Shown one piece after another: positions 1 through 13,932 of a stretch of DNA of 64,000 nucleotides. The position numbers and the translations under genes are program-made. Every line of letters begins with the position of its first letter. Positions within the stretch are counted from its first letter, which is position 1. The notes under the pieces are model-generated. The model ran no database searches. It had not been told where the DNA came from and saw only the letters and a list, made by a program, of their open reading frames with translations. This DNA is from an uncultured Bacteroidota bacterium (GTDB taxonomy: Bacteria > Bacteroidota > Bacteroidia > Flavobacteriales > Flavobacteriaceae), in assembly GCA_902622575.1 (NCBI GenBank), contig CACNQJ010000001.1:10896-74895 (forward strand). The letters run 5' to 3'.

Positions 1-734
1 ATTTGAAAATAAGCAATTTCGCTCCAACATTTACTTATATTAGGAATTAAGTTACCCTCCTGAATTTGTTGATGATATATGTCAAAAAGAATCTTGCATG
101 ATGGTGAGTCGACTGATTTACATATTTCGAAAGCTTGTGGACTTTCGGTAAGAAATAGTCCAGGATGATTCAAAAAATTTAAGGGTTCTAAAACCATAAC
201 CAGCCCATGTGGTTCAAGTATTTCACTTGCATATTTTAATGAGTCAACAACATTTACTGTCTGATAAGATAAATCCAATCGTAAATCTTTATATCCGGGG
301 ACAACGGTCATCCATTTCGCATTAATTCTTTTTGCAACTTCAACAGATTCTTTTATTTCATTTAAAAATTCTTCTCTTTTTTTTGAATCACCGCTTGCAA
401 GATTTGGTTCCTTCCAATGAATAGTGTGAGCAACAAAAACACCCATCTCAATTCCTCTTTTTTGCATAGTCTTAGACATTTTATTTTGTACATCAATCGT
501 CCTTTTTTTTAAATTGTTGTCTTCAAAAGCTGTAAAACCCTCATCAGCAATATAATTTAATTGATCAATTAGGTCACTTCCAGCTAAATTTTTGAACATA
601 CCAAAATGTGGAGCATATTTCAAATTGAATTTATTTCTTGGTTGAAAATTGTCAATTAGATTAGAACCTAAATTCGGAATAAATAAAGCTGATGAGCCTA
701 AACCTAAATTGTTTAAAAAATCTCTTCTTAACAC
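1..734 (-). CDS. Sugar phosphate isomerase/epimerase (xylose-isomerase-like TIM barrel) with Tat signal; its 3' end runs off the window
   Basis: Absent from the ORF track because it has no stop in the window. My reverse-strand translation from GTG at 734-732 gives VLRRDFLNNLGLGSSALF (twin-Arg leader), then KYAPHFGMFKNLAG, IADEGFTAFEDN, AKWMTVVPG, MVLEPLN and ILFDIYHQQIQEGN. These are typical of the hydroxypyruvate-isomerase-like TIM-barrel family. Confidence 0.7.
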   Translation of the reverse strand, partial: MLRRDFLNNLGLGSSALFIPNLGSNLIDNFQPRNKFNLKYAPHFGMFKNLAGSDLIDQLNYIADEGFTAFEDNNLKKRTIDVQNKMSKTMQKRGIEMGVFVAHTIHWKEPNLASGDSKKREEFLNEIKESVEVAKRINAKWMTVVPGYKDLRLDLSYQTVNVVDSLKYASEILEPHGLVMVLEPLNFLNHPGLFLTESPQAFEICKSVDSPSCKILFDIYHQQIQEGNLIPNISKCWSEIAYFQ

Positions 735-753
735 AACATTAAATTAAGAATAA

Positions 754-1719
754 TTATTTAATCCAATATTTGTTTTGTTCCTCTATTGAGGGTGTTTTAA
801 ATGGTCTTACTACCCTGAAACCTAGGAACTGCGCATCTGTGTGCCACCATAGGCTTCTAGGAATTTGAGGATCTTGCTTTTTCCACTTTTTGTTCGAAGC
901 AAGTCTTGCAGAGCTGCGTAATCTATAGGATCTGTCCATAAATGAACCACCTCTTGCAACCCTTGGATACAACTTTATTGCAGTTTCCAAAGGGTTTTTC
1001 ACAACAGAATCTAACCTATTGTAAGCGGTAGGATTGTACTGATCTAATGTCCATTCTGAGACATTGCCATGCATATCATGTAATCCCCACTGATTTGGTT
1101 TTTTTTGTCCAACTTTTTGATATTTACCATTACTGTTTTCATCGTACCATGCATATTCAGATATTAGATTCTCGTCTTCAAAACTAAATGGTGTATCAGA
1201 CCCTGCTCTGCAAGCATATTCCCATTCAGCTTCAGTAGGTAGCCTATAATAATTTCCAGTCATCGCAGAAAGCCATTCACAAAACTTAGATGCTGCTAAT
1301 TGAGTCATTGAAATAGCAGGATATCCATCTGTTCCCATACCAAAACTCATTTCGACATAAGGAGTTGTTGCACTACTAACTGCGTCAACTTGCATATTTA
1401 TTTCATTGCTCTCATTGTAGCCTACTTGATCTTCATCAATTTCTCTACCCATAAATAAATGATATAAATCCCATGTAATTTCAAATTTACCTATCCAAAA
1501 AGAATCAACTTTAACAGTATTAACTGGACCTTCATCAGCCATTCTGTTTGCTTCATGATTTGGACTACCCATATTAAAAACACCACCATTTATTGAAACC
1601 ATTTCCAAACCATAGTCTATGCCTGCAATTTTTTGATTGTAATTGGTAAAATCTTTTTCTTGAGAAAAGTTAAAACAGCTTAAAAATAAAAACAAAGCAA
1701 TTATAATGTGCAACCTCAT
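754..1719 (-). CDS. FGE-fold (SUMF1/EgtB/PvdO-family) lipoprotein lacking the FGE catalytic cysteines
   Basis: 321-aa ORF with a lipoprotein-like leader (LFLFLSCFNF). FGE-sulfatase domain motifs are RLPTEAEWEYACRAG, HDMHGNVSEWT and RGGSF. After RGGSF it reads MDRSYRLRSSAR with no Cys, unlike the paralog at 8947. Confidence 0.8.
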   Translation of the reverse strand: MRLHIIIALFLFLSCFNFSQEKDFTNYNQKIAGIDYGLEMVSINGGVFNMGSPNHEANRMADEGPVNTVKVDSFWIGKFEITWDLYHLFMGREIDEDQVGYNESNEINMQVDAVSSATTPYVEMSFGMGTDGYPAISMTQLAASKFCEWLSAMTGNYYRLPTEAEWEYACRAGSDTPFSFEDENLISEYAWYDENSNGKYQKVGQKKPNQWGLHDMHGNVSEWTLDQYNPTAYNRLDSVVKNPLETAIKLYPRVARGGSFMDRSYRLRSSARLASNKKWKKQDPQIPRSLWWHTDAQFLGFRVVRPFKTPSIEEQNKYWIK

Positions 1720-1734
1720 AGTGATTTTAAAATT

Positions 1735-3204
1735 TTAGGCTAAAAGATCATGCTTAATGTCTCCATGAACATCAGTTAGCCTAAATCTTCTACCTTGATA
1801 TTTATATGTCATTTTTTCATGATTAATACCAAATAGATGAAGAATCGTAGCTTGTAGGTCATGAACGTGGACTGGATCCTTAACAATGTTATATCCAAGA
1901 TCATCAGTTTCACCATATGAAAATCCTGGCTTAACCCCACCACCTGCCATAAATATTGTGAAGCATCTTGGATGGTGGTCTCTTCCGTAAGTATTATTTT
2001 TTAATGCAGCTTGTGATCCCTGGCTGTACGATGTTCGACCAAATTCACCTCCCCACACAACAAGTGTATCTTCTAATAATCCCCTTTGTTTTAGATCCAT
2101 AATCAAGGCGGCAGTTGGTTGGTCAATATCACTAGCTTGTCCTCTAATTTGAGTTGGTAAATTTTCATGTTGATCCCAACCCATGTGATAAAGCTGAACA
2201 AACCTTACGTCTTTCTCAATTAATTTTCTTGCCAGAATACAATTTGCTGCATATGTCCCAGGTTTTTTAGAATTTGGACCATACATCTTTAGAATGTTAT
2301 CAGGTTCATCAGAGATATCCATTGTTTCAGGTACAGATGTTTGCATTCTGTATGCCATCTCATACTGTGATATTCTACTTTCTATTTCTTTATCTCCAAA
2401 CATATTTAACTGTTCTTCATTTAGCTCCGACAGATAATCAAGCATTTTTCTTCTCTCTTGCCTGGTCAGATTTTCAGGGTCTTTTAAAAACAAAACAGGG
2501 TCTTTTGCAGATCTAAATTGAACACCTTGATGTAATGAACTCAAAAACCCGTTACCCCAAAGTCTTGAATAGAGAGGTTGACCTTTGGGCCTTCCAGTAC
2601 CTCTAGACAACAATACAACAAATGATGGTAAGTTTTTATTTAGACTACCTAACCCATAACTTAACCAAGAACCCATGCTTGGTCGTCCAGGTTGTTGAGA
2701 TCCTGTTTGAAAAAATGTAACAGCAGGGTCATGATTTATTGCCTCAGTATTCATCGACTTTACAAAGCACAGCTCATCAACAACTTTACTTAAATATGGT
2801 AATAGGTCACTTACCCAAGCTCTTGATTCACCATATTGTTTAAAATTCGTTACGCCACCAACCAAAGAAAACTTATCTTGACCTGACGTCATTCCAGTAA
2901 GTCTTTGCCCCATTCTAACAGATTCAGGTAAATCAATTCCCCTCATTTCCATTAGTTTTGGTTTATAGTCAAAAAGATCTTGTTGTGCTGGTCCACCACT
3001 TTGGAATAGATAGATAATTCTCTTTGCTTTAGGTGCAAAATGAGGAAGATTCAATTGGTTTTTGATTACTGAAAATGGATCTTCTTTTGAGTTATCAAAA
3101 GGATTAACAATTGATCCTAAAGCTAAACCGCCAATACAAAGGCCAGTTTTTTTCAGAAAATTTCGCCTGTTGTTATTAATAAAATGTTTATGTATCTCTT
3201 CCAT
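1735..3204 (-). CDS. DUF1501 family protein (sulfatase/alkaline-phosphatase-like fold), Tat-exported
   Basis: 489 aa with twin-Arg leader NNNRRNFLKKTGLCIGGLALG. DUF1501 hallmarks are LFQSGGPAQQDLFDYKP, WGGEFGRT and GRDHHP. Its ATG shares one nt with the upstream stop (TGATG at 3206-3202). Confidence 0.85.
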   Translation of the reverse strand: MEEIHKHFINNNRRNFLKKTGLCIGGLALGSIVNPFDNSKEDPFSVIKNQLNLPHFAPKAKRIIYLFQSGGPAQQDLFDYKPKLMEMRGIDLPESVRMGQRLTGMTSGQDKFSLVGGVTNFKQYGESRAWVSDLLPYLSKVVDELCFVKSMNTEAINHDPAVTFFQTGSQQPGRPSMGSWLSYGLGSLNKNLPSFVVLLSRGTGRPKGQPLYSRLWGNGFLSSLHQGVQFRSAKDPVLFLKDPENLTRQERRKMLDYLSELNEEQLNMFGDKEIESRISQYEMAYRMQTSVPETMDISDEPDNILKMYGPNSKKPGTYAANCILARKLIEKDVRFVQLYHMGWDQHENLPTQIRGQASDIDQPTAALIMDLKQRGLLEDTLVVWGGEFGRTSYSQGSQAALKNNTYGRDHHPRCFTIFMAGGGVKPGFSYGETDDLGYNIVKDPVHVHDLQATILHLFGINHEKMTYKYQGRRFRLTDVHGDIKHDLLA

Positions 3205-5480
3205 CAGCTTTTTTGACTAGTCTCATCTAAGTTATAAATTAACATACAAAGTTTATCAAATGCCACAGATTCTTCATTTAATGAATTTTCATCATCAAAA
3301 TAATTTTTAAGCATCTTAATCTCATTTTTGTTCGGAACCCGTCCAGTAATTGTTCTGTATAGCAGATTTATTTTTTCATTTAGTGATAATTTCTTTGTAA
3401 AAATATTTCGAGATAAGCTCAATGCAGCTTTTTGAAATTCTGGATTATTCATAAGCGTTAATGATTGTAAAGGAGTACTAGTGTTTTGCCTCTTAACCTC
3501 ACAATTATCCCTAGATGCTGCATCGAAAATCATCATTGTTGGGGGTGGAACAGTTCTTTTCCAAAAAGTATATAAACTCCTTCTATACAAATTTTCTCCA
3601 CTGCTCATAACATATTTTGCTAAACTTCCCCCGCCACCACCTGTTACTTCATCCCAGAGGCCATCCGGTTGCAATGGCTTTACACTAGGACCACCTAATT
3701 TATTGACCAGTAATCCACTTGTCTTAAGTATATTATCCCTTATCATTTCTGCTGATAATTTTTGTCTGGGATACCTTGATAAAAAAACATTTTCTGGATC
3801 AATATTGTAATTTAAATCACTAGTGATACTGGATTGTCTATATGTAGAGGACATAACGATTCTTTTGATTAGTTTTTTAGTATCCCATTTATCATCTTTT
3901 TGATAGGTTACTGCTAACCAATCCAGTAAGTCAGGATTTATTGGTCGGTTTCCCTGACTACCAAAATCATCAGGTGTAGCTACTATTCCAACCCCAAAAA
4001 ATTGTTGCCAAATTCTGTTAACTACTACTCTTGATGTTAAGGGATTTTCGTCAGAAAAGAACCAGTTAGCCAAATCTAATCTATTGCCATTTTCTTTGTC
4101 CAATGGCAGAACTGCAGATGGAGTCATTGGTTTAACTTCATTCATTTGCAAATTATAGAGACCTCTATTCAAAACGTAGGTTTTTCGTAAGTTTTCAGTC
4201 TCTTTCATAACCATGAAAGTAACTTTATCAATGCTGTCTGGAAGTTTTATAAAATCTAGCCCTTCATTTAATTCATTTTTAGAAACCGTAATTTTTGGTT
4301 CAGGTGCGAAGTCACCATAAGCAATCAAACCTTTTTCATTCACATTATTAAAGAAACTATAAAAACCATAAAATTCATCATGAGTAATATTATCATATTT
4401 GTGACTATGACATCGGGCGCATTCCATAGTTAGTCCCATCATTAATTTTGAAGTTGTTATTGCTCTATCAGCAACATACTCAACTCTGTATTCTTCTGGG
4501 ATAACTCCACCCTCTTGAGTTATTTTATGATTTCTATTAAACCCAGTTGCGATTATTTGTTCTTTAGTTGCATTAGGAATTAAATCTCCAGCCAATTGCC
4601 AAGTAATAAACTCATCATAGGGAATATTTTTATTATATGCATGTATTACCCAATCTCTCCACGGCCACATAGTTCTTTCTGTATCATCTTGATAACCATG
4701 ACTATCACCATACCTCGCAATATCCATCCATATTGATGCCATCCTCTCACCATAGTTTTTGGAAGCAAGAAGTTCATCAACAACTTTCTCATATGCATTC
4801 TTTGATTTATCATTTATAAATTTATCAATTTCATCAACTGAGGGAGGTAATCCTACAATATCAAAATACAATCTTCTAAGTAGAATTTCTTTTGATTCCA
4901 TTTTTGAAAATTCTAATTTTTGATTTTCAATATTTTTAGCGATAAAAAAATCTATTTCATTTTTGATCCATTCAATGTTTTCAATTTTTGGTGTTTCTGG
5001 TTTTACTGGCTTTATGAAAGACCAGTGTTTTTTCCACTCTGCACCTTGCAATATCCAATTTTTTAGAATATTCTTTTCATAGTCAGATAAACTCAAATTA
5101 GATTCGGGGGGTGGCATCACGATAGATTTATTTTCATGAAAAATTCTTCTAATCATTTCACTTTCCTCTAAATTATCAACATCTATAACTCTTTTAATGA
5201 GATCCTCAGTCATTTGATAAAGCCCCTCTTTTGTATCGAGTCTTAAATTAGCTTTTCTTTGTTTGTCATCGGGACCATGGCAGGTAAAACATTTATCAGA
5301 AAGGATTGGGTTAACATGAAAATTAAAATCAATCTTTTCAGGCACATTAGATATATTGATAACTTCAAAATCTGCATTTGAATTTTCAATATACTCATCA
5401 CTGAAATTGTCAGAACTATAATATTTTAATAGAAGTATTAAAATAAATGGAACTAAAAAGAAAGCTGCATTTTTTTTCAT
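3204..5480 (-). CDS. Planctomycete-type cytochrome c domain / DUF1549 / DUF1553 protein
   Basis: 758 aa with an N-terminal signal/anchor and the haem-binding CxxCH motif in CFTCHGPDDKQRKANLRLD. DUF1549-like (RRLYFDIVGLPPSVDEID) and DUF1553-like (CARCHSHKYD, RVVVNRIWQQFFG) segments follow. This is the classic partner of DUF1501. Confidence 0.85.
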   Translation of the reverse strand: MKKNAAFFLVPFILILLLKYYSSDNFSDEYIENSNADFEVINISNVPEKIDFNFHVNPILSDKCFTCHGPDDKQRKANLRLDTKEGLYQMTEDLIKRVIDVDNLEESEMIRRIFHENKSIVMPPPESNLSLSDYEKNILKNWILQGAEWKKHWSFIKPVKPETPKIENIEWIKNEIDFFIAKNIENQKLEFSKMESKEILLRRLYFDIVGLPPSVDEIDKFINDKSKNAYEKVVDELLASKNYGERMASIWMDIARYGDSHGYQDDTERTMWPWRDWVIHAYNKNIPYDEFITWQLAGDLIPNATKEQIIATGFNRNHKITQEGGVIPEEYRVEYVADRAITTSKLMMGLTMECARCHSHKYDNITHDEFYGFYSFFNNVNEKGLIAYGDFAPEPKITVSKNELNEGLDFIKLPDSIDKVTFMVMKETENLRKTYVLNRGLYNLQMNEVKPMTPSAVLPLDKENGNRLDLANWFFSDENPLTSRVVVNRIWQQFFGVGIVATPDDFGSQGNRPINPDLLDWLAVTYQKDDKWDTKKLIKRIVMSSTYRQSSITSDLNYNIDPENVFLSRYPRQKLSAEMIRDNILKTSGLLVNKLGGPSVKPLQPDGLWDEVTGGGGGSLAKYVMSSGENLYRRSLYTFWKRTVPPPTMMIFDAASRDNCEVKRQNTSTPLQSLTLMNNPEFQKAALSLSRNIFTKKLSLNEKINLLYRTITGRVPNKNEIKMLKNYFDDENSLNEESVAFDKLCMLIYNLDETSQKS

Positions 5481-5507
5481 ATTACACCATAACTAATTTA
5501 AAAAAAA

Positions 5508-6233
5508 TTAGCTATTTGTGTCTAGAAGAGGTAAGATGACTGACTCCATTACCTTATATCCATCTTTATTTGGATGAACTAAATCATCTTCTGTGGTGTG
5601 TTCCGGAACTTTTAGACCTCCGTTGCCATCATCCATCTTAGCATGATAATCGACATATTGGATATTATTCTTTAAACAGTAATCCTGCAATAAAGAATTT
5701 AGCTTAATAACTTTCTCAGCAACATTTTTAATTGAAGGTGACCAGGGAAATGCTTTGGCAGGTAAAACAGAACAAATAAATACATCAATATTATTTGCTT
5801 TAGCTATTTCACTCATTGAAAATATATTTTCAGCAATATTTTTAATTTTCATTGGACCAGTATTTCCCGCAATATCATTTATACCAGCTAGAATTACAAC
5901 AGACTTAGGCTTGAGGTTTACAACATCTGGCTTGAATCTAATTAGCATTTGAGGCGTGGTTTGGCCACTAATTCCTCTGTTTATAAAGGGATTATTGATA
6001 AAAAAATCTGGATCAAAGTTTGACCATCCCTCAGTTATTGAGTTACCCATAAAAACAACCCTACTTTTATCAACTTCTTTCATCAATTTTTCATTTGATT
6101 CTGCAAATTTAGATATGTTAGCCCAATCATCAAGTGTGCCTCCTCCTTGGATAAAAACTTGGTTACTCATATTTTCTGTTTTACATCCTAAAAAATTAAA
6201 AGATATAATTAATAGTATTAAATATTTATTCAT
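5508..6233 (-). CDS. SGNH/GDSL-family hydrolase (acetylesterase-like) lipoprotein
   Basis: 241 aa with leader ...FNFLGC. The SGNH blocks are VVFMGNSITEGW (I), GISGQTT (II), LAGINDI (III) and DLVHPN (V). Confidence 0.8.
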   Translation of the reverse strand: MNKYLILLIISFNFLGCKTENMSNQVFIQGGGTLDDWANISKFAESNEKLMKEVDKSRVVFMGNSITEGWSNFDPDFFINNPFINRGISGQTTPQMLIRFKPDVVNLKPKSVVILAGINDIAGNTGPMKIKNIAENIFSMSEIAKANNIDVFICSVLPAKAFPWSPSIKNVAEKVIKLNSLLQDYCLKNNIQYVDYHAKMDDGNGGLKVPEHTTEDDLVHPNKDGYKVMESVILPLLDTNS

Positions 6234-6990
6234 TTGTCTTAGTTTTTGAGTGAATCCATTCTAAAAAATCCTTTTCAGCAAAAGCGTTATCCCAACTATT
6301 ATGACCAATATTTTCATATATAGTAATTTTTGGGTTCCCACCAGCATCTAGGATGGCATTGGCCATTTTTAGAGACTGTTTGGCAAGAACAACTTGATCT
6401 GCAGAACCATGAAAAATCCATATAGCTACCTTATTTGCAAAGTTCTTAACTGAACCTGGATCTCCATCTCCGCAAATTGGGGTAGCAGCTGCAAACATAT
6501 TTGGTCTTGCATTTAATATAGAGAATGTTCCAAGCCCACCCATAGATAATCCACTAACATAAACTCTATTTTGATCGACATCTTTCCTTTGAATAAATTC
6601 ATCCATGAATTTGATTACCAGTTCTAGTGATTTGGATCTTTTAACATTGTAATCATACTTGTATGGGTCATAGTAGCCACCCCACCAATCGTTTTTTGGT
6701 GATTGAGGAAATATAACCCATGATTTATATTTATTTCTATTAATACTGTCTAGAAATAAGTTAGATCCGTGAATAAGTTGTAATTCATTATCATTTCCTC
6801 TTTCACCGGCACCATGTAAAAAAAGATGAACAGGATATTTTTCATTTTCATTATAATTGAGGGGTGCTAGTATTCTGTATTTTAGTGTATCATTTTCAAT
6901 TATAAATTTTTCTTTTTCAAACAGGCTTGTTTGAGCACTAATTAAAAGTGGAATTAAGAGTAAAAGTAATCTGCTATAAATCATCATCAC
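6226..6990 (-). CDS. Secreted alpha/beta-hydrolase esterase (phospholipase/carboxylesterase-like)
   Basis: 254 aa with a signal peptide. It has [13 protein letters not shown], the nucleophile elbow [15 protein letters not shown] and a terminal GHNSW. It overlaps its neighbours by 8 and 17 nt. Confidence 0.7.
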
Positions 6991-8650
6991 TTGGTAATCT
7001 TATATTTTCAACAAGTTGAACAATTTTTTTGGGTGGTGGTGGTGTGAAATTTGACACTGTAATCGAAACAATTAAATTAATGACCATTGCAATAGTTCCA
7101 AATCCCTCTGGTGAAACACCAAACCACCAATCATCAGGACCTCCTCCTCCAAACCATCCAAATTTGAACTTCGTCATATAAAAAAGCATTGATAAAATCC
7201 CTATGAGCATACCTGAAATAGCACCTTCTTTATTCATTTTCTTATAAAAAATTCCTAATACAATTGCAGGAAAAAATGAAGCTGCTGCAAGACCAAAAGC
7301 TAATGCTACAGTAGCCGCGACAAAGTCAGGGGGATTAATTCCAAAGTATCCAGCTAGTATGACAGCAAAGAATGCTGATACCCGAGCAGCAATCAATTCT
7401 CCTTTATCTGTAATTTCAGGATTGATAATTCTTTTAATTAGGTCGTGAGAAATTGATGAGGATATCACTAGTAAAAGTCCTGCCGCGGTGGATAATGCAG
7501 CTGCTATGGCTCCTGCAGCTAAAAGTGCAATAACCCAGTTAGGTAATTGAGCAATTTCAGGATTTGCCAAAACCATAATATCCTTATCAATTGTTAATTC
7601 GTTTAATTGTTCATCACCAAGATATTGAATTATGTTGTCCTGATTTTTATCATCAAACTCTAAAAGGCCAGTGTCTTCCCATTTTTTAAACCAGTAAGGC
7701 ATTGTTGAGTAGTCTTTTTCAGATACTGTCTCTATTAAATTTGTTCTTGCAAAAACTGCAATAGCTGGAGCTGTAGTATAAAGTATAGCTATAAATAGCA
7801 GAGCCCAGCCAGCAGATTTTCTTGCATCGCTAACTTTTTTTACAGTAAAAAATCTGACTATTACATGTGGAAGCCCTGCTGTTCCAATCATTAATGCGGC
7901 TGTAATTAGAAAAACATCTAGAGTAGATTTAGATCCTGAGGTGTATTCACTGAAACCTAACTCATCGTGAAGACCATTTAATTTATCTAATAAATAAACT
8001 CCATCCGCTGACTCAGAACCAAAACCAAGTTGTGGAATTGGATTGCCAGTCATTTGTATTGAAATAAAAATTGCAGGAACCATAAATGCAAAAATCAATA
8101 CGCAGTACTGAGCAACTTGTGTATAAGTAATGCCTTTCATTCCACCAAGAATTGCGTAAAAAAGAACTATTCCCATCCCAATAAAAACACCTGAATTTAT
8201 ATCAACTTCTAAGTATCTTGAAAATACAATTCCTACGCCTCTCATTTGTCCAGCGATATAAGTAAAAGATACAATAAGGGCACAAAAAACTGCAACGGTT
8301 CTTGCAACATTTGAGTAGTAGCGATCACCAATAAAATCAGGGACTGTAAATTTTCCGAATTTTCTTAAGTATGGAGCTAATAGTAGAGCCAATAAAACAT
8401 ATCCACCTGTCCAACCCATTAAATAAACTGAACCATCGTATCCAATAAAGGATATGATTCCTGCCATAGAGATGAATGATGCGGCACTCATCCAGTCCGC
8501 AGCGGTAGCCATACCATTTGCTATTGGATTAACACCCTTTCCGGCTATGTAAAATTCATTAGTAGAACCTGCCTTTGACCAAATTGCGATTCCTATATAT
8601 AATGCAAAAGTCAAACCTACAATTATCCAAATCCAAATTTGTAATGACAT
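6974..8650 (-). CDS. Sodium:solute symporter, ActP-like subfamily that pairs with DUF4212
   Basis: 558 aa and polytopic, with SSS-family segments ([42 protein letters not shown]). It lies directly downstream of a DUF4212 small subunit. Confidence 0.85.
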
Positions 8651-8655
8651 TATGA

Positions 8656-8910
8656 TTAATTTTTAGACCTATAAAATTTATCAAGCCTGTTCATCAAAAA
8701 AATGTAAACAAAAATTAAAATAACAAAGATGTAAATAGAACCTTGTTGAGCAAACCAAAATCCAAGTTTAAAACCAAAGAATTGGATTTCATTTAACTGC
8801 TCAGCTAATATTATTCCAAAACCAAATGAAACTAAAAACCAAATTGATAAAAGGATGGTTAAGTATCTAAGATTTTTTTTCCAGTAAATTTGAGCTTTAT
8901 TGTTTTTCAT
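8656..8910 (-). CDS. DUF4212 small membrane subunit of the solute:sodium symporter
   Basis: 84 aa with two TM helices, including [22 protein letters not shown]. It sits 5 nt upstream of the symporter. Confidence 0.8.
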
Positions 8911-8946
8911 GCTTGATGTGTGTAATTTAGTGATTATTTATTTTAA

Positions 8947-9987
8947 TTGAAAGTGAATATATCCAATTGCACATTACAATTTTTTTTAGTTTTTTTCTCA
9001 TTGCTTGTCATTGGATGTGATAGTGTTACCAACATAAAAAAATCAAATAACATTGTGAAAGATGGTATGGTTTTTATTGAGGGTGGCAAATTTATGATGG
9101 GAGGAGATAATGATGAAGCTAGGAGTGATGAGTTTCCAAAACATAGCGTAGAGGTAAGTTCTTTTTGGATGGATGAAAGCGAAGTTACCAATGCTCAATT
9201 TAAAAAATTTGTTGATGAAACAGGTTATGTTACAACCGCTGAAAGAAAAATTAATTGGGATGAAATTAAATCAGTATTACCACCTGGTACACCAAAACCT
9301 AATGATACTTTACTTGAACCCGCATCTTTAGTTTTTAAAGAAATCGAAACTAAAAATCTTGACAACTATTCCAAATGGTGGTCTTTAGTCAGAAATGCAA
9401 ATTGGAGACAACCATTTGGACCCGACAGTGATATTATTGGAAAAGACGATTATCCTGTAGTTCACGTTAGCTGGGAAGACGCAGTTGCGTATTGTGATTG
9501 GTCAGGTAAAAGATTACCCACTGAGGCTGAGTTTGAATATGCATCAAGAGGCGGTAAACTTAATAATATATACAGCTGGGGAAATGAAAAAATTGATGAA
9601 GTTGAATATAAAGCTAACAGTTGGAATGGAAACTTTCCGAGCACGAATACAGTTTTAGATAAATTCTATTACTCTTCACCTGTTAAATCATTCTCACCAA
9701 ATGGCTATGGGCTATTTGATATTGGTGGTAATGTTTGGGAGTGGTGTTCTGACTGGTACCACTCGGAATATTATTCAATGTTACCAAAAAAAGGATCTTT
9801 AAATCCACAGGGACCAAAAACAAGCTATGACCCAATGGAACCATACAGTGAAAAAAAAGTGATTAGGGGAGGCAGTTTTTTATGTAACGATTCATATTGC
9901 AGCGGATACAGGAATGCAGCAAGAATGAAAACAACTCCAGACTCAAGCTCATTACACACAGGATTTCGCACAGTCTATTCAGATTAA
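8947..9987 (+). CDS. Formylglycine-generating enzyme (sulfatase maturase), lipoprotein
   Basis: 346 aa with leader ...LLVIGCDS. Motifs are RLPTEAEFEYASRGG and GNVWEWCSDWY. RGGSFLCNDSYCSGYR retains both catalytic Cys codons (tgt 9883-9885, tgc 9898-9900). The start is non-ATG (TTG 8947 or GTG 8953). Confidence 0.85.
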   Translation: MKVNISNCTLQFFLVFFSLLVIGCDSVTNIKKSNNIVKDGMVFIEGGKFMMGGDNDEARSDEFPKHSVEVSSFWMDESEVTNAQFKKFVDETGYVTTAERKINWDEIKSVLPPGTPKPNDTLLEPASLVFKEIETKNLDNYSKWWSLVRNANWRQPFGPDSDIIGKDDYPVVHVSWEDAVAYCDWSGKRLPTEAEFEYASRGGKLNNIYSWGNEKIDEVEYKANSWNGNFPSTNTVLDKFYYSSPVKSFSPNGYGLFDIGGNVWEWCSDWYHSEYYSMLPKKGSLNPQGPKTSYDPMEPYSEKKVIRGGSFLCNDSYCSGYRNAARMKTTPDSSSLHTGFRTVYSD

Positions 9988-9992
9988 AAACT

Positions 9993-10027
9993 AAATGCCC
10001 AAATCTTTTGAGATGATTTGGGCATTT
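9993..10027. terminator. Bidirectional hairpin terminator between convergent genes
   Basis: aaatgcccaaatc (9993-10005), a 9-nt loop, then gatttgggcattt (10015-10027), flanked by A/T runs. Confidence 0.6.
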
Positions 10028-10100
10028 AAAAACAACAACTAACCAAAAAATATTATGTATTCTTTTTTGTATAAAACATTAACCATGCCAAACTTTATAA

Positions 10101-11012
10101 TTAGCTATTTTTTAATATGTCTTTCAATGAAAAAACTGTTCTGTAGCCCTTTTTTTGAAAATATTCTTTAGAATTATTAGGGCCAGCTGCCAATACAAAA
10201 TCACCTCCCCATGCACCTAAACTTTTAATCTCACCTTTGTAATCATTAAATAAAATAGTTTTTATCATTTTTCTTTTCAGTTCAGTTGACAGGATTTTTT
10301 CATGTTCAACAATTAAATTTTGAAAACTATTAAGATTCTTACATTCAACTATTTTTTCAGTTATTGATGATATTAATTTTATCGTTTTTTCACTGACCTT
10401 TATATTAGTGTTAAAATAGTCGACTTCATCCTCACTTTTTTGTTTCTTGTTCATGTAAATAAAAAATAAGTTATCATGAAATATTGGATCAAATATAATT
10501 TCATGATACTTAGGTTCATCATTTATTAATTCATAAATAATTGGACCATTTGCTATTGCAGATGCAATGTCATATCCACTTCCGTTTGATACCATAGTGT
10601 GAAGTTTAAATGGGTTTATGTTTGCCCATTTTGAAATATTACTTATTAAAGTAGATGATGATCCAAGCCCCCAACTTCTTTTGAAATTCATTCTCGAAAC
10701 AACTTTAAATCCTGAGTTGGTTTTTAAAAAATTTGGATTGATTTTTTTAGTGCTACAAAGTAATTTCTTTAAAAATAATGTTTCTTTATTTTTCGTGCTT
10801 AAAATTTTTAGATTACTCAAATCAAAAGTTGCTTCAATCCATGGATCATTATTTTTATCATAGCTGACCCAGATCAATTTACTCTCTTTTATGCCCTCAA
10901 TTTTTAGGGTTTGATAAAATTTGGTTGGAATACTCAGAGATTTAGCACCTTTTAAGACAAAATACTCTCCAGTAATTAAAAGTTTTCCATGACTTTTAAA
11001 AATCGAGTTCAT
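10101..11012 (-). CDS. GYDIA-family GHMP kinase (candidate mevalonate-pathway kinase)
   Basis: 303 aa with KLLITGEYFVLKG, GLGSSSTL and the family-naming GSGYDIASAI motif. It overlaps the HMG-CoA reductase stop by 17 nt. Confidence 0.8.
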   Translation of the reverse strand: MNSIFKSHGKLLITGEYFVLKGAKSLSIPTKFYQTLKIEGIKESKLIWVSYDKNNDPWIEATFDLSNLKILSTKNKETLFLKKLLCSTKKINPNFLKTNSGFKVVSRMNFKRSWGLGSSSTLISNISKWANINPFKLHTMVSNGSGYDIASAIANGPIIYELINDEPKYHEIIFDPIFHDNLFFIYMNKKQKSEDEVDYFNTNIKVSEKTIKLISSITEKIVECKNLNSFQNLIVEHEKILSTELKRKMIKTILFNDYKGEIKSLGAWGGDFVLAAGPNNSKEYFQKKGYRTVFSLKDILKNS

Positions 11013-12315
11013 TTTTTTTCAATTTATTTAATGCATCTTCAACATCTCTAAAACTAACTTTATGTTTTTTAAAATATTCAATCAAAATTTTTTTTTCACT
11101 CTCATTAGCACTTAATGAGTTTAATATATTAATTAGGTGCATTTTCATGTGTCCAAGTTGAATACCCGAGGTTATTAAAGACCTAATTGCAGCAAAATTT
11201 TGTGCCAGACCTGCAACTGAAATAATTTTCATTAATTCAGATCCTGATGGATTTTTTAATAATTTCAGACACCATTTAACTAATGGATGAAGGTTTGTAA
11301 TACCTCCTACACTTCCAATAGCTAAAGGAATTTCTATCCAGTAAACAAATTCATCATTTTCAATAGCTGCATGTGTGAGGCTTGAGTATACCCCGTCCTT
11401 TGAGGCATATGCATGGGTGCATGCCTCAACTGCTCTAAAATCATTTCCTGTAGCAATAACGACTGAATCAATTCCATTCATAATTCCTTTGTTATGAGTA
11501 ACTGCTCTATTGATATCTTTTTTGGCAATTTCAATTGCATCAACAAATCTTTGAGCAAATTTTAAAGGATCAACAATATCATCACTTTTTAATTCATCAA
11601 CTTTACACCTTACTTGAGATTTAACTATACATTCAGGAACATAATTAGATAAAATACTCATTAATATTTCAATACCATCATTTTTTTCAAAATAGTCTGA
11701 TTCATTAAATTCAGTTTCAAATGTTTTTGCATATTGTTCTAAACAAGAATTAATAAAATTTGCACCCATTGAGTCTGCAGTATTAAACTCAGAGTTCAGC
11801 TGATAGTAATTTTTTATTGAACTTGTCTTGTCAATTAATTCAATATTTAAAATACCACCACCTCTTTTTTCCATATTTTTTGTGAGGCCTGAACATTCAG
11901 ATATTAATTTAATCTTAATACTTTCAAAAAACTTGAAAAGTTTTTCTTTAGATCCATTGTATTTGAAGTGAACTTGTCCAGTTTTAATTGTGTCTATAAT
12001 TTCAGTTCTAAAACCACCTCTTTTGGACCAGTATTTAGCAGCTTTACAAGCTGCAGCAACTACTGAGCTTTCCTCAGTTGCCATTGGAATAGTATAATTT
12101 TTATTATCAATTATAAAATTAGGAGCAATACCAAGAGGAAGAAAAAAATTAGAAATTGTATTTTCAGAAAATTCATCATGAATTTTCTGGAGTTCCTCGT
12201 CATTAGACCAGTATTTTTTAAGAATATCAGAATCTATTTTTGATGAATTAAAAAAATTGTCAATTACCCAATCAATTTTTTCACTCTTATTTAGTTTTGA
12301 AAAACCTTCTTTCAT
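10996..12315 (-). CDS. mvaA: Hydroxymethylglutaryl-CoA reductase, class II
   Basis: Class II HMGR-like segments are PMATEESSVVAAA, DSMGANFIN, THNKGIMNGIDSVVIATGNDFRA and LAQNFAAIRSL. I prefer the ATG at 12315 (MKEGFSKL) because the track's TTG at 12327 lies inside a promoter box. Confidence 0.9.
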   Translation of the reverse strand: MKEGFSKLNKSEKIDWVIDNFFNSSKIDSDILKKYWSNDEELQKIHDEFSENTISNFFLPLGIAPNFIIDNKNYTIPMATEESSVVAAACKAAKYWSKRGGFRTEIIDTIKTGQVHFKYNGSKEKLFKFFESIKIKLISECSGLTKNMEKRGGGILNIELIDKTSSIKNYYQLNSEFNTADSMGANFINSCLEQYAKTFETEFNESDYFEKNDGIEILMSILSNYVPECIVKSQVRCKVDELKSDDIVDPLKFAQRFVDAIEIAKKDINRAVTHNKGIMNGIDSVVIATGNDFRAVEACTHAYASKDGVYSSLTHAAIENDEFVYWIEIPLAIGSVGGITNLHPLVKWCLKLLKNPSGSELMKIISVAGLAQNFAAIRSLITSGIQLGHMKMHLINILNSLSANESEKKILIEYFKKHKVSFRDVEDALNKLKKNELDF

Positions 12316-12324
12316 AGAATTAAA

Positions 12325-12332
12325 CAAAGATA
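12325..12332 (-). promoter_or_regulatory. Bacteroidota -7 promoter box TAnnTTTG (TATCTTTG) for HMG-CoA reductase
   Basis: Exact consensus match on the minus strand, 9 nt upstream of the ATG at 12315. Confidence 0.5.
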
Positions 12333-12390
12333 ACTATTGTAATATTCTTTTAATAAACATATATTTAAAAGGAAATCCTCAGCATAATTT

Positions 12391-13932
12391 ATGACCAAAA
12401 TCATACATCAGAGATTTTTTTTTAATCTTCTAGTTCTATCGATTTTTTATTTTACTGCCTGTGATACTAAAGTTCAAAAAGAGGACAAGCCTAATGTAAT
12501 TTATATCTTAGCAGATGATCTTGGTTATGGTGAATTGGGTGTGTATGGTCAAAAAATCATTGAAACTCCTAATATAGATGCCTTAGCAAATAATGGGTTA
12601 TTATTTACTAATCATTATACTGGCTCACCGGTTTGCGCACCTGCAAGAAGTGTACTAATGACAGGTCAACATTCAGGTCATACCCACATAAGAAATAATG
12701 GTGAGTGGTCGGAGAGAGGTGATGTTTGGAGTTTTGAAGCAATGTTTAAAGATCCCTCGCTAGAGGGTCAACGACCTCTTCCTGACTCTACTATAACAGT
12801 AGCAAAAGTTTTCAAAGACAATGGTTATAAAACTGGGATGGTAGGAAAATGGGGTTTAGGTGCTCCCCACACTAACAGCATACCAAATTTGATGGGTTTT
12901 GATTTTTTCTATGGATATAATTGTCAAAGACAAGCTCACACATTTTACCCTACACATTTATGGAAAAATACTGAAAAGGATATTTTAAATAATTATATAG
13001 TTACCAAACAAGAAGGTCTTGAAGATGGAGCTGATATAAATTCTGAGGACAGCTATAATAAATATAATCAAGCTGATTATTCAGCTACATTAATGCAAAA
13101 GGAAGCTCTAAATTTTATTGAAGAGAATAAAGATTCAAATTTTTTTCTTTATTATGCTTCACCGATTCCACACTTACCTTTGCAAGCCCCAAAAGAATGG
13201 GTTGATTATTACAGAGAAAAAATCGGACCTGAAAAACCTTATGTTGGCAGATCCTATTATCCCAATCAATTTCCTAAAGCGACATATGCTGCGATGATTT
13301 CTTACTTAGATAAACAAGTTGGAGAAATCGTTGAGAAGCTTAAAGAAATTGGAAAATATAATAACACTTTAATAATTTTTACTAGCGATAATGGACCAAC
13401 ACATGTTAAACAAGTCGATATAGATTATTTTAACAGCGCAGGTATATTAAATGGTGATAGAAATAGAGTTAAAGGAAGAGTTTATGAGGGTGGAATCAGA
13501 GTTCCAATGATAGCGCACTGGCCGAATAAAATAAAAAGTGAGAGAGTAACTAATCATGTTTCTGCATTCCAAGATTTTTATGCGACCGTTGTTGATATTT
13601 TAGAATTAAATAAACCTAGTTATATTGACGGATTGAGTTTTCTTCCTTTGTTAAATAATAAAAACCAAGAAAAACATGATTATCTGTACTGGGAGTTTTC
13701 TACACAAAGTGGTCAACAAGCAGTAAGATATGGAAAATGGAAGGGAATTAAAACTAATTTACAAAAGGGACCACAAACTTTACAATTATATAATCTTGAA
13801 GATGATATTCGTGAATTAAAAAATGTATCTAATGAAAATCCTGAAATAGTTAAAAAAATAGAATCAATTATTTTAAATGCAAGAACGACACCTTCTCTTG
13901 AAAAATTTAAAATCAAAGCTTTAGATAATTAA
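12391..13932 (+). CDS. Cys-type sulfatase (arylsulfatase / N-acetyl-hexosamine sulfatase-like), lipoprotein
   Basis: 513 aa with leader ...FYFTACDT and ADDLGYGELG. The FGly target motif is C-A-P-A-R in SPVCAPARSVLMTGQ (12634-12648), followed by FTSDNGP. Confidence 0.9.
   Translation: MTKIIHQRFFFNLLVLSIFYFTACDTKVQKEDKPNVIYILADDLGYGELGVYGQKIIETPNIDALANNGLLFTNHYTGSPVCAPARSVLMTGQHSGHTHIRNNGEWSERGDVWSFEAMFKDPSLEGQRPLPDSTITVAKVFKDNGYKTGMVGKWGLGAPHTNSIPNLMGFDFFYGYNCQRQAHTFYPTHLWKNTEKDILNNYIVTKQEGLEDGADINSEDSYNKYNQADYSATLMQKEALNFIEENKDSNFFLYYASPIPHLPLQAPKEWVDYYREKIGPEKPYVGRSYYPNQFPKATYAAMISYLDKQVGEIVEKLKEIGKYNNTLIIFTSDNGPTHVKQVDIDYFNSAGILNGDRNRVKGRVYEGGIRVPMIAHWPNKIKSERVTNHVSAFQDFYATVVDILELNKPSYIDGLSFLPLLNNKNQEKHDYLYWEFSTQSGQQAVRYGKWKGIKTNLQKGPQTLQLYNLEDDIRELKNVSNENPEIVKKIESIILNARTTPSLEKFKIKALDN

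Follow-up and report, generated by a model that had tools for sequence, protein, structure and literature searches.

A cysteine-less FGE-fold protein of a marine flavobacterium, its dehydrogenase neighbour and the adjoining DUF1553/DUF1501 pair

Genes for a PSCyt/PSD1 protein and a DUF1501 protein form a module that was described in Planctomycetes, Verrucomicrobia and Lentisphaerae with its function left unassigned (Kamneva et al. 2012, PMC3542564). The present work concerns such a pair, together with the adjoining gene for a cysteine-less protein that shares its fold with formylglycine-generating enzyme (FGE) and is called the FGE-like protein below. The genes lie in a stretch of 64,000 nucleotides from an uncultured member of the Flavobacteriaceae (GCA_902622575.1, contig CACNQJ010000001.1), and this whole stretch is referred to as the window. 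An earlier note on the same DNA had read the three genes as a fixed periplasmic triad. The results reported here point elsewhere. It can be said with high confidence that a Gfo/Idh/MocA dehydrogenase with a twin-arginine translocation (Tat) signal, here called GFO1, and not the DUF1553/DUF1501 pair, is the constant partner of the FGE-like protein. We lean towards reading the FGE-like protein as a covalent-flavin electron carrier for this periplasmic dehydrogenase, and the DUF1553/DUF1501 pair as a separate cassette.

Several described systems resemble parts of the locus. BT2156-BT2160 of Bacteroides thetaiotaomicron form a periplasmic 3-keto-glycoside pathway. The products that the source names comprise a lolE-like epimerase, a DUF1080 protein, two MviM-like dehydrogenases and a SusR-family regulator, and no FGE-like protein is among those named; what accepts the electrons of the related Tat dehydrogenase BT2158 was not identified there, and reduction of another sugar was proposed (Liu et al. 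2021, PMC8121099). ThuAB and LacABC are cytochrome c-dependent 3-ketoglycoside dehydrogenases, which oxidize a sugar in the periplasm and pass the electrons to cytochrome c (cited in PMC8121099). PvdO (PDB 5hha) is a periplasmic protein needed for dihydropyoverdine oxidation, the electron path of which is described as open (PMC6206403). ApbE places flavin mononucleotide (FMN) on the final residue of the motif D-x-x-[S/T]-G-A-[S/T], and the extracytosolic carriers flavinylated by it include the FMN_bind domains of NqrC, RnfG, NosR and PplA as well as DUF2271 and DUF3570 proteins (PMC12052999; PMC8238504).

The pair in the window (3204-5480 and 1735-3204) has the same domain architecture, Tat signal on the DUF1501 protein and immediate adjacency as the module in PMC3542564 and PMC5615132; no FGE-fold neighbour is described in the cited parts of these papers, and here the pair occurs in a streamlined 1.27-Mb flavobacterial assembly. 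The locus shares with BT2156-BT2160 the Tat Gfo/Idh/MocA dehydrogenase with presumed bound NAD(P), the sugar-isomerase-like TIM barrel and the periplasmic setting, GFO1 and a TIM-barrel gene both being present here. It differs in the proposed fate of the electrons, which is a flavin/haem outlet to respiration here and reduction of another sugar there (PMC8121099). In addition, relatives of the window's module adjoin DUF1080 3-keto-disaccharide hydrolases (L057, G236), while a search confined to the scanned genes of the window's string, with the rest of the genome not searched, gave no DUF1080 (PF06439) match. Likeness to ThuAB and LacABC lies in the ThuA and GMC-type genes beside relatives of the module; the difference is that the accessory proteins of those systems have the ThuA fold and the enzyme is an FAD-GMC protein with a small Tat subunit. 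To our knowledge, these systems contain no FGE-fold component.

PvdO was the best match of the FGE-like protein by sequence (E 1.6e-19) and by fold (E 1.4e-19, TM-score 0.79 on the target), and it too is periplasmic and without the FGE cysteines. It differs in that the FGE-like protein scored 95.8 bits against the NCBIfam cut-off of 500, that the string holds no pyoverdine genes, and that the FGE-like subfamily has a C-terminal insertion and a loop motif of its own. With the ApbE-flavinylated carriers (PMC8238504, PMC12052999), the subfamily shares export, a short loop that begins with Asp and ends with Thr or Ser, an ApbE gene in the operon or fused in relatives, and ties to cytochromes and periplasmic redox enzymes; it differs in having the FGE/SUMF1 fold and a motif that often reads [ST]-x-P-[ST], and its flavinylation is a prediction. 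None of the terms FGE, sulfatase, Gfo or formylglycine occurs in the main texts of PMC8238504, PMC12052999 and the preprint 10.1101/2024.03.13.584918, and no mention of the FGE fold as a substrate for ApbE was found there; their supplements may list further candidate substrate families. Among the papers listed by literature searches on DUF1501/DUF1553, MocA/ApbE, ApbE/PvdO/SUMF1 and MocA/formylglycine/twin-arginine/cytochrome c, none dealt with the FGE-fold/dehydrogenase module.

Neighbours of the FGE-like gene

The neighbourhood of the FGE-like gene was surveyed in sets of increasing breadth. The genus survey searched 61 genomes, of which 29 belong to the genus, the window's own genome (G000) being counted in. 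The phylum sample comprised 400 other Bacteroidota genomes, and only the best three DUF1501 candidates were scored per genome, so some cases may be missed. The cross-phylum set comprised 80 FGE-fold loci, the 40 nearest the query being taken as the subfamily and the remaining 40 as controls; this split, at L057/L058, was made by similarity rank and fixed before counting. Three of the 40 nearest loci (L040, L047 and L051) have hardly any downstream sequence, and the cross-phylum loci were represented by same-strand open reading frames (ORFs) only, with opposite-strand genes judged by tblastn.

The results showed that the FGE-like gene was present in 24 of the 29 genus genomes and that a GFO1 homologue was adjacent to it in all 24 carriers, lying either about 950 nucleotides away with the TIM gene between or 29 nucleotides away. 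The phylum sample gave 45 FGE-like matches in 43 genomes, and a GFO1 homologue lay within 400 nucleotides on the same strand in 39/45. At the level of whole genomes, GFO1 was found in 43/43 sampled genomes carrying the FGE-like gene compared with 11/357 without it. Across phyla, a GFO homologue was found within 5 kb in 26/40 of the nearest loci and in none of the 40 controls, and the same contrast was seen for ApbE (13/40 versus 0/40) and the TIM barrel (6/40 versus 0/40). DUF1501 and DUF1553 were near the FGE-fold gene in 1/40 and 0/40 of the nearest loci, respectively, compared with 2/40 controls each. An order-level sample of 200 other genomes contained the FGE-like gene in two, too sparse for a neighbourhood count.

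These counts bear on two proposals of the earlier note. The FGE-like protein as a fixed third component beside the pair is contradicted by them, since GFO1 is the neighbour that persists, whereas DUF1501 is adjacent in 15/24 carriers of the genus and within 10 kb of only 2/45 matches in the phylum sample. The suggestion that the Tat TIM-barrel gene downstream would be a functional clue was borne out. TIM-barrel homologues sit beside the FGE-like/dehydrogenase pair in 6/40 loci. A complex prediction for GFO1 (residues 34-437) with the FGE-like protein (residues 16-321) gave a score of 0.21 against a mark of 0.32, which speaks neither for nor against binding.

The FGE-like/dehydrogenase module is common: 43 of the 400 Bacteroidota genomes sampled contain it, further loci come from phyla that include Planctomycetota, Verrucomicrobiota, Acidobacteriota and Gemmatimonadota, and it is retained in this streamlined marine flavobacterial genus (24/29), the genomes of which are about 1.5 Mb. 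Its setting is one of sugar metabolism: the window's string includes a GH109-like gene, esterases and a symporter, and genes for a DUF1080 3-keto-disaccharide hydrolase, ThuA, a GMC oxidoreductase and a rhamnosidase are found beside relatives. At L118 (G236:C5:96000-108000, 2018-8434), the genes immediately ahead of those for the FGE-like protein, GFO1 and the TIM barrel encode a gluconate-2-dehydrogenase subunit-3-like protein, a GMC oxidoreductase and a DUF1080 hydrolase; this cluster therefore holds two kinds of periplasmic sugar dehydrogenase. At L028 (9923-17414), the FGE-like gene is followed by YceI and ApbE genes and then by genes for a short-chain dehydrogenase/reductase (SDR), a fumarylacetoacetate (FAA) hydrolase, a [2Fe-2S] protein and a molybdopterin hydroxylase large subunit. 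From this last string, the carrier may serve enzymes besides Gfo/Idh/MocA dehydrogenases.

Cysteine loss, redox signs and the candidate flavin site

An alignment of the window's protein with the true FGE encoded at 8947-9987 and 22 subfamily members showed that both catalytic cysteine columns are deleted, not shifted, in the FGE-like protein. They are absent from every aligned subfamily member and retained in the true FGE, and short deletions explain the loss (RGGSF--MDR-SY versus RGGSFLCNDSYCSGY). The only cysteines of the window's protein are at positions 15, 147 and 170. Because both cysteines are lost throughout the subfamily, the protein, as judged from its sequence, cannot function as a copper/Cys FGE, and the earlier note was right on the cysteines. 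The fold motifs it listed (RLPTEAEWEY, GNVSEWT and RGGSF) are likewise present. The FGE fold is borne out by Pfam (PF03781, 9e-44), by an AlphaFold2 model with a mean predicted local distance difference test (pLDDT) score of 91.5, and by Foldseek matches to human and bacterial FGEs (E about 1e-15). In the Foldseek list PvdO (5hha) came first, the Treponema variable protein 2y3c second and FGEs third, and a sequence search against solved structures gave the same ranking. Two markers set the subfamily apart, namely a 16-residue C-terminal insertion (WKxQDPQIPKSxWWxTDA) and a loop with the consensus DAVSxPTxPYxDMSFGMG.

The window's protein and its relatives have a hydrophobic N-terminal signal sequence, judged by eye, and export by a signal peptide is likely. 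The lipoprotein call of the earlier note is doubtful, because few close relatives keep a lipobox cysteine: among 117 of them (310-330 amino acids) the supposed lipobox residue Cys15 is not conserved, a cysteine anywhere in residues 9-24 occurs in 24, and a lipobox-like pattern occurs in 14. The protein did not reach the NCBIfam equivalog cut-offs for GldK (102 versus 350 bits) or GldJ (44.5 versus 458 bits); these non-catalytic FGE-fold lipoproteins are encoded elsewhere in the genome by separate genes of 472 and 550 amino acids. Their existence, the tight spacing of the three genes and an order that is the same in 15 genus genomes could be taken to favour the fixed periplasmic complex of the earlier note, in which a lipoprotein of FGE fold, non-catalytic and either structural or binding in its role, would join the DUF1553 and DUF1501 proteins. 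However, this is very unlikely, given the rarity of the lipobox and the low GldK and GldJ scores, and it has already been largely refuted by the surveys, the counts of which favour the dehydrogenase.

Domain fusions and gene linkage in relatives point to another role. From a search of a 50%-identity library, 34 representatives were chosen that match the query over nearly the full length in one or two stretches and are 45-58% identical to it. Eleven of them carry an N-terminal PSCyt1 haem domain, one is fused to ApbE (P0191), three have a weak FG-GAP match and one an F5/8-type-C domain. Among the loci, the FGE-like domain is joined to PSCyt1 in L018, L020, L021, L023 and L029, and to a NapC/NirT membrane tetrahaem domain in six (L041, L045, L046, L048, L049 and L055). 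An ApbE gene belongs to the same operon in L027, L028, L029, L030, L031, L036, L043 and L052 and lies just upstream, split across two frames, in L055; the ApbE-linked loci include L028 and L036, both without the dehydrogenase. The c-type cytochrome fusions, the ApbE linkage and an ApbE-type motif in a conserved loop thus point to a redox role for the FGE-like domain, and the structural or binding role put forward in the earlier note is unlikely.

The loop reads D-[AG]-[IV]-[ST]-x-[AP]-[TS] across the subfamily, DAVSSAT in the window and DGITGAT in L041. In the 117 close relatives its end is S-G-A-T in 54, S-A-A-T in 43 and S-S-A-T in 19, and one has none of these. A looser pattern, D[AGIV][IVLM][STAV]x[AP][ST], was found in 32/40 subfamily loci and in 0/40 other FGE-fold loci. 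The form with Pro predominates in members from the Planctomycetes-Verrucomicrobia-Chlamydiae (PVC) bacteria, Acidobacteriota and Chitinophagia, and all 13 ApbE-adjacent loci are of this type. The members seen with the Ala type are those of the window's genus, L022, L041 and L045, and ApbE adjoins none of them. Taken with the ApbE linkage, the loop suggests, with moderate confidence, that the FGE-like protein carries a covalently attached flavin. A stretch ASGAT in GFO1 was also considered as a flavinylation site and was ruled out, as it is not conserved.

Several observations weigh against the flavin-carrier reading. The strict motif D..[ST]GA[ST] was found in only 1/40 cross-phylum loci; the window's loop has Ser at the position of the motif's Gly, and most members outside the flavobacterial clade have Pro for its Ala (e.g. 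DAVTRPT). No ApbE gene lies within 5 kb in 27/40 subfamily loci. Of the two ApbE genes in the window's genome, the first follows nqrB-F and the second lies in a thioredoxin/ApbE/DUF3570 cluster, and neither adjoins the FGE-like gene. No haem domain is fused to the window's FGE-like protein, and the string of the sister clade has no cytochrome. PvdO, the closest solved relative, was purified without detectable cofactor (PMC6206403). Finally, related genomes and loci do not represent independent cases, and there were fewer separate events than the counts suggest.

Some of these points could be accommodated if the FGE-like protein were an enzyme that needs no cofactor or a metal, or else a subunit conferring specificity, and had the substrate or keto-product of the dehydrogenase as its target, much as PvdO acts in an oxidation step; the loop would then bind substrate or partner and no flavin. 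PvdO, its best match in sequence and fold, is needed for an oxidation and came without a cofactor, and most loops of the subfamily depart from the canonical ApbE motif. Such an enzyme, however, would leave unexplained both the adjacency and fusion of ApbE and the fact that c-type cytochromes of two unrelated kinds have repeatedly been fused to the domain, and we consider it improbable.

Under the flavin-carrier reading, which we prefer, the following mechanism can be proposed. The Gfo protein of Zymomonas is reportedly exported folded with bound NAD(P), and GFO1 would be exported in the same way and, once in the periplasm, would oxidize a sugar or glycoside. Thr118 of the FGE-like protein, which lies in the DAVSSAT loop, would receive FMN from one of the two ApbE enzymes that the genome encodes. 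The flavin would then re-oxidize the NAD(P)H of GFO1 and pass the electrons to a c-type haem and on to the respiratory chain; in other phyla this haem domain would be the PSCyt1 or membrane NapC/NirT tetrahaem domain that is observed fused to the FGE-like domain. The TIM barrel would act on the keto-sugar product.

The DUF1553/DUF1501 cassette and the FGE-like module

The haem motif CFTCH and the Tat DUF1501 protein noted earlier were both confirmed. CFTCH is at residue 64 of the DUF1553 protein, and an additional CxxCH, CARCH, is at residue 354 in the DUF1549/PSCyt2 part; because of this second motif, the protein may bind two haems. The DUF1501 protein is the only strong DUF1501 match of the genome (514 bits). 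A second, weaker match to the family (80 bits, in a 549-amino-acid frame, G000:C4:101445-102215 (+)) may be a divergent DUF1501-like protein. In an alignment of 18 DUF1501 sequences, D79, K81, H158, W343-D344-x-H346, G386-E-F-G-R390 and G407-R-D-H410 are invariant, and no Cys or Ser is. The AlphaFold2 model (pLDDT 75.1) matched sulfatases, LtaS, phosphonate monoester hydrolase and alkaline phosphatase best in Foldseek (E 4e-6 to 2e-4, TM-score 0.3-0.37). By this model, the DUF1501 protein distantly resembles the sulfatase/alkaline-phosphatase fold; its gene did not appear when the genome was matched to the sulfatase family PF00884, and it did not qualify as a sulfatase.

With such a fold encoded directly upstream, it could be imagined that the FGE-like protein serves the DUF1501 protein as a maturation enzyme, in the manner of FGE with sulfatases. 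We give this the least credence of all the readings considered, because the FGE catalytic cysteines are absent, the DUF1501 protein stands outside the genome's sulfatase family and offers no invariant Cys or Ser, and no DUF1501 gene was found within 5 kb in 39/40 subfamily loci or, at E <= 1e-30, in nine genomes of the genus.

DUF1501 lies directly upstream of the FGE-like gene in 15 of the 24 genus carriers, which form one clade (FGE-like identity at least 70%); since the gene order is kept in these, it is no assembly accident. In the other nine carriers, with completeness of 57-87%, no DUF1501 was found at E <= 1e-30. One of the nine, the clade-B relative G217, has a true FGE on the opposite strand and then genes for a sodium:solute symporter (SSF), FGE-like protein, GFO1, esterase and GH109 protein, which is the window's string minus the second esterase, GDSL esterase, DUF1553, DUF1501 and TIM genes. 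In the phylum sample, scored as above from the best three candidates per genome, DUF1501 was directly adjacent to 0/45 FGE-like matches and within 10 kb of two, in G200 and G229. G200, a complete genome from another genus of the family, has genes for the FGE-like protein, YceI, ApbE, a PSCyt1-DUF1549-DUF1553 protein, DUF1501, a 476-amino-acid PSCyt1 protein, an SDR and an FAA hydrolase on the plus strand with gaps of 3-84 nucleotides (L120, G200:C1:2226000-2242000, 5198-13150). Its FGE-like protein has a lipobox (QSC) and the loop DAITRPS. In G229 the order is FGE-like, YceI, M20 peptidase, DUF1553, DUF1501 and PSCyt1 protein. L028 has the FGE-like, YceI, ApbE, SDR and FAA hydrolase string without the DUF1553, DUF1501 and PSCyt1 genes, and L018 has a DUF1501 gene 1.7 kb upstream. 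The DUF1501 copies in the joined operons of G200 and G229 are 62% identical to the window's copy compared with 66-67% for other copies in the same genomes. At the level of whole genomes, DUF1501 was found in 28/43 sampled genomes with the FGE-like gene and in 13/357 without it, a skew that shared descent and lifestyle can yield.

These results demonstrate that the cassette is separable and has joined the FGE-like module in only a few flavobacterial lineages. The adjacency in the window nevertheless does not look wholly accidental, because the cassette joined an FGE-like operon again, with the genes ordered differently, in two further genera of flavobacteria. YceI-like proteins bind isoprenoids and quinones, and the YceI gene in the G200 string may hint at a quinone link.

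It is conceivable that both modules cooperate, electrons passing between the flavin of the FGE-like protein and the PSCyt1 haem on the DUF1553 protein and the pair being a redox-driven enzyme fed or drained by the dehydrogenase. Elsewhere, the FGE-like domain is fused to PSCyt1 more often than to any other domain, and here PSCyt1 is on the DUF1553 protein in the same string. The cassette joined the FGE-like operon at least twice, in different orders (the window versus G200 and G229), with DUF1501 copies that are not the closest relatives of the window's copy; the L018 neighbour and the genome-level co-occurrence agree with this. Nonetheless, we hold cooperation to be unlikely. Adjacency is rare in the phylum sample and across phyla, the nine genus genomes in which DUF1501 was not found still have the FGE-like gene and GFO1, the cassette is missing from the G200-type operon of L028, and the co-occurrence may reflect only shared lifestyle and descent.

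The gene string, its genome and the meaning of a possible flavin link

The window corresponds to G000:C1:10896-74895 of an assembly of 1.27 Mb that is 82% complete, and the features of the string are listed in Table 1. The region consists of two modules within one gene string, the DUF1553/DUF1501 pair and the FGE-like, TIM and GFO1 genes. ORFs and spacing confirmed the three tightly spaced genes of the earlier note, with a 1-nucleotide TGATG overlap between DUF1553 and DUF1501 and a gap of 15 nucleotides to the FGE-like gene; a further gap of 19 nucleotides separates the latter from the GTG of the TIM gene. Beyond the window start, the TIM-barrel and GFO1 genes are followed by genes for a PHB-depolymerase-like esterase, a Tat GH109-like protein and an endonuclease/exonuclease/phosphatase-family protein. 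The whole string has about 12 genes, with gaps of at most 136 nucleotides or short overlaps. Pfam gave E-values of 1.1e-12 (PSCyt1), 4e-84 (PSCyt2/DUF1549) and 9e-93 (PSD1/DUF1553) for the 758-amino-acid protein, 4.6e-154 for DUF1501 and 8.2e-23 for the xylose-isomerase-like TIM barrel, in addition to the FGE-sulfatase match of the 321-amino-acid protein given above. Twin arginines are seen in NNNRRNFLKK of the DUF1501 protein and MLRRDFL of the TIM protein. The latter scored far under the NCBIfam cut-offs, and its nearest characterized relatives are weak NCBIfam matches.

Table 1. Coordinates of the features of the gene string (window positions unless given as G000:C1)
Feature	Position	Strand	Basis
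PSCyt1 / DUF1549 (PSCyt2) / DUF1553 (PSD1) protein, 758 amino acids, signal peptide, two CxxCH	3204..5480	-	ORF + Pfam
Tat-signal DUF1501 protein, 489 amino acids, by its model a distant sulfatase / alkaline-phosphatase-fold member without sulfatase signature	1735..3204	-	ORF + Pfam
Exported Cys-less FGE-fold protein, 321 amino acids, proposed covalent-FMN electron carrier and GFO1 partner	754..1719	-	ORF + Pfam
Codons for loop D112-A-V-S-S-A-T118, candidate ApbE flavinylation site (Thr118)	1366..1386	-	motif likeness
Tat-signal xylose-isomerase-like TIM-barrel gene, 5' part, 244 codons, GTG start	3..734	-	Pfam
TIM-barrel gene, whole, 304 amino acids	G000:C1:10715-11629	-	full ORF beyond window
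GDSL/SGNH esterase, upstream, 27 nucleotides from DUF1553 start	5508..6233	-	Pfam
Alpha/beta esterase (S9 / PHB-depolymerase-like)	6226..6990	-	Pfam + NCBIfam
Sodium:solute symporter (SSF, 6974-8650) and small DUF4212 subunit (8656-8910), first genes of the string	6974..8910	-	Pfam
Genuine FGE with Cys pair (RGGSFLCNDSYCSGYR), divergent from operon, comparison sequence	8947..9987	+	Pfam 1.2e-78
GFO1, Tat Gfo/Idh/MocA oxidoreductase, 437 amino acids, RRFFLK signal	G000:C1:9389-10702 (just outside window start)		GFO_IDH_MocA domains

A sigma-70 promoter scan of window positions 1-9300 gave 40 promoter-like sites compared with 42.4 expected, with a model that does not cover Bacteroidota promoters. 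A scan of the same positions gave no minus-strand terminator, and the operon limits are not informed by it. Over window positions 1-6300, marine metatranscriptome contigs (four runs from one study) matched pieces of all four genes concerned at 95% identity or more. Two of them (X3 record 13 and X6 record 30) span the DUF1553/DUF1501 junction, while none among the matches listed spans the DUF1501/FGE-like junction; such contigs alone are no proof of transcription.

The assembled genome has one true FGE and 16 sulfatase-domain (PF00884) matches, two of them within one 671-amino-acid frame; one sulfatase is encoded at window position 12391-13932 (+). For a streamlined cell, this set is a heavy investment in sulfated glycans. 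A CotH-kinase-family gene borders the FGE-like string both in the window's genome (G000:C1:4030-5958 (+)) and in G200 (L120 3509-4480 (-)), which may be coincidence.

If the FGE-like protein carries an ApbE-attached flavin, it would add a new fold to the electron carriers with covalent flavin. Tat-exported, NAD(P)-loaded periplasmic sugar dehydrogenases would then also have the electron outlet that has been missing for them; the current view is that their oxidant has to be a second sugar (Liu et al. 2021, PMC8121099). The window shows one of only two architectures seen to join the FGE-like module to the DUF1553/DUF1501 pair, which makes a redox link between them testable. Because the modules are joined in two gene orders in Flavobacteriaceae and the PSCyt1 and FGE-like domains are fused in PVC bacteria, the long-unexplained PSCyt/DUF1553 and DUF1501 pair might, as a tentative idea that we would not bet on, be a redox-driven periplasmic enzyme wired to sugar oxidation through the FGE-like flavin. 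If true, this would provide a first lead to the function of a family that ranks, in Planctomycetes and Verrucomicrobia, among the largest without a known one.

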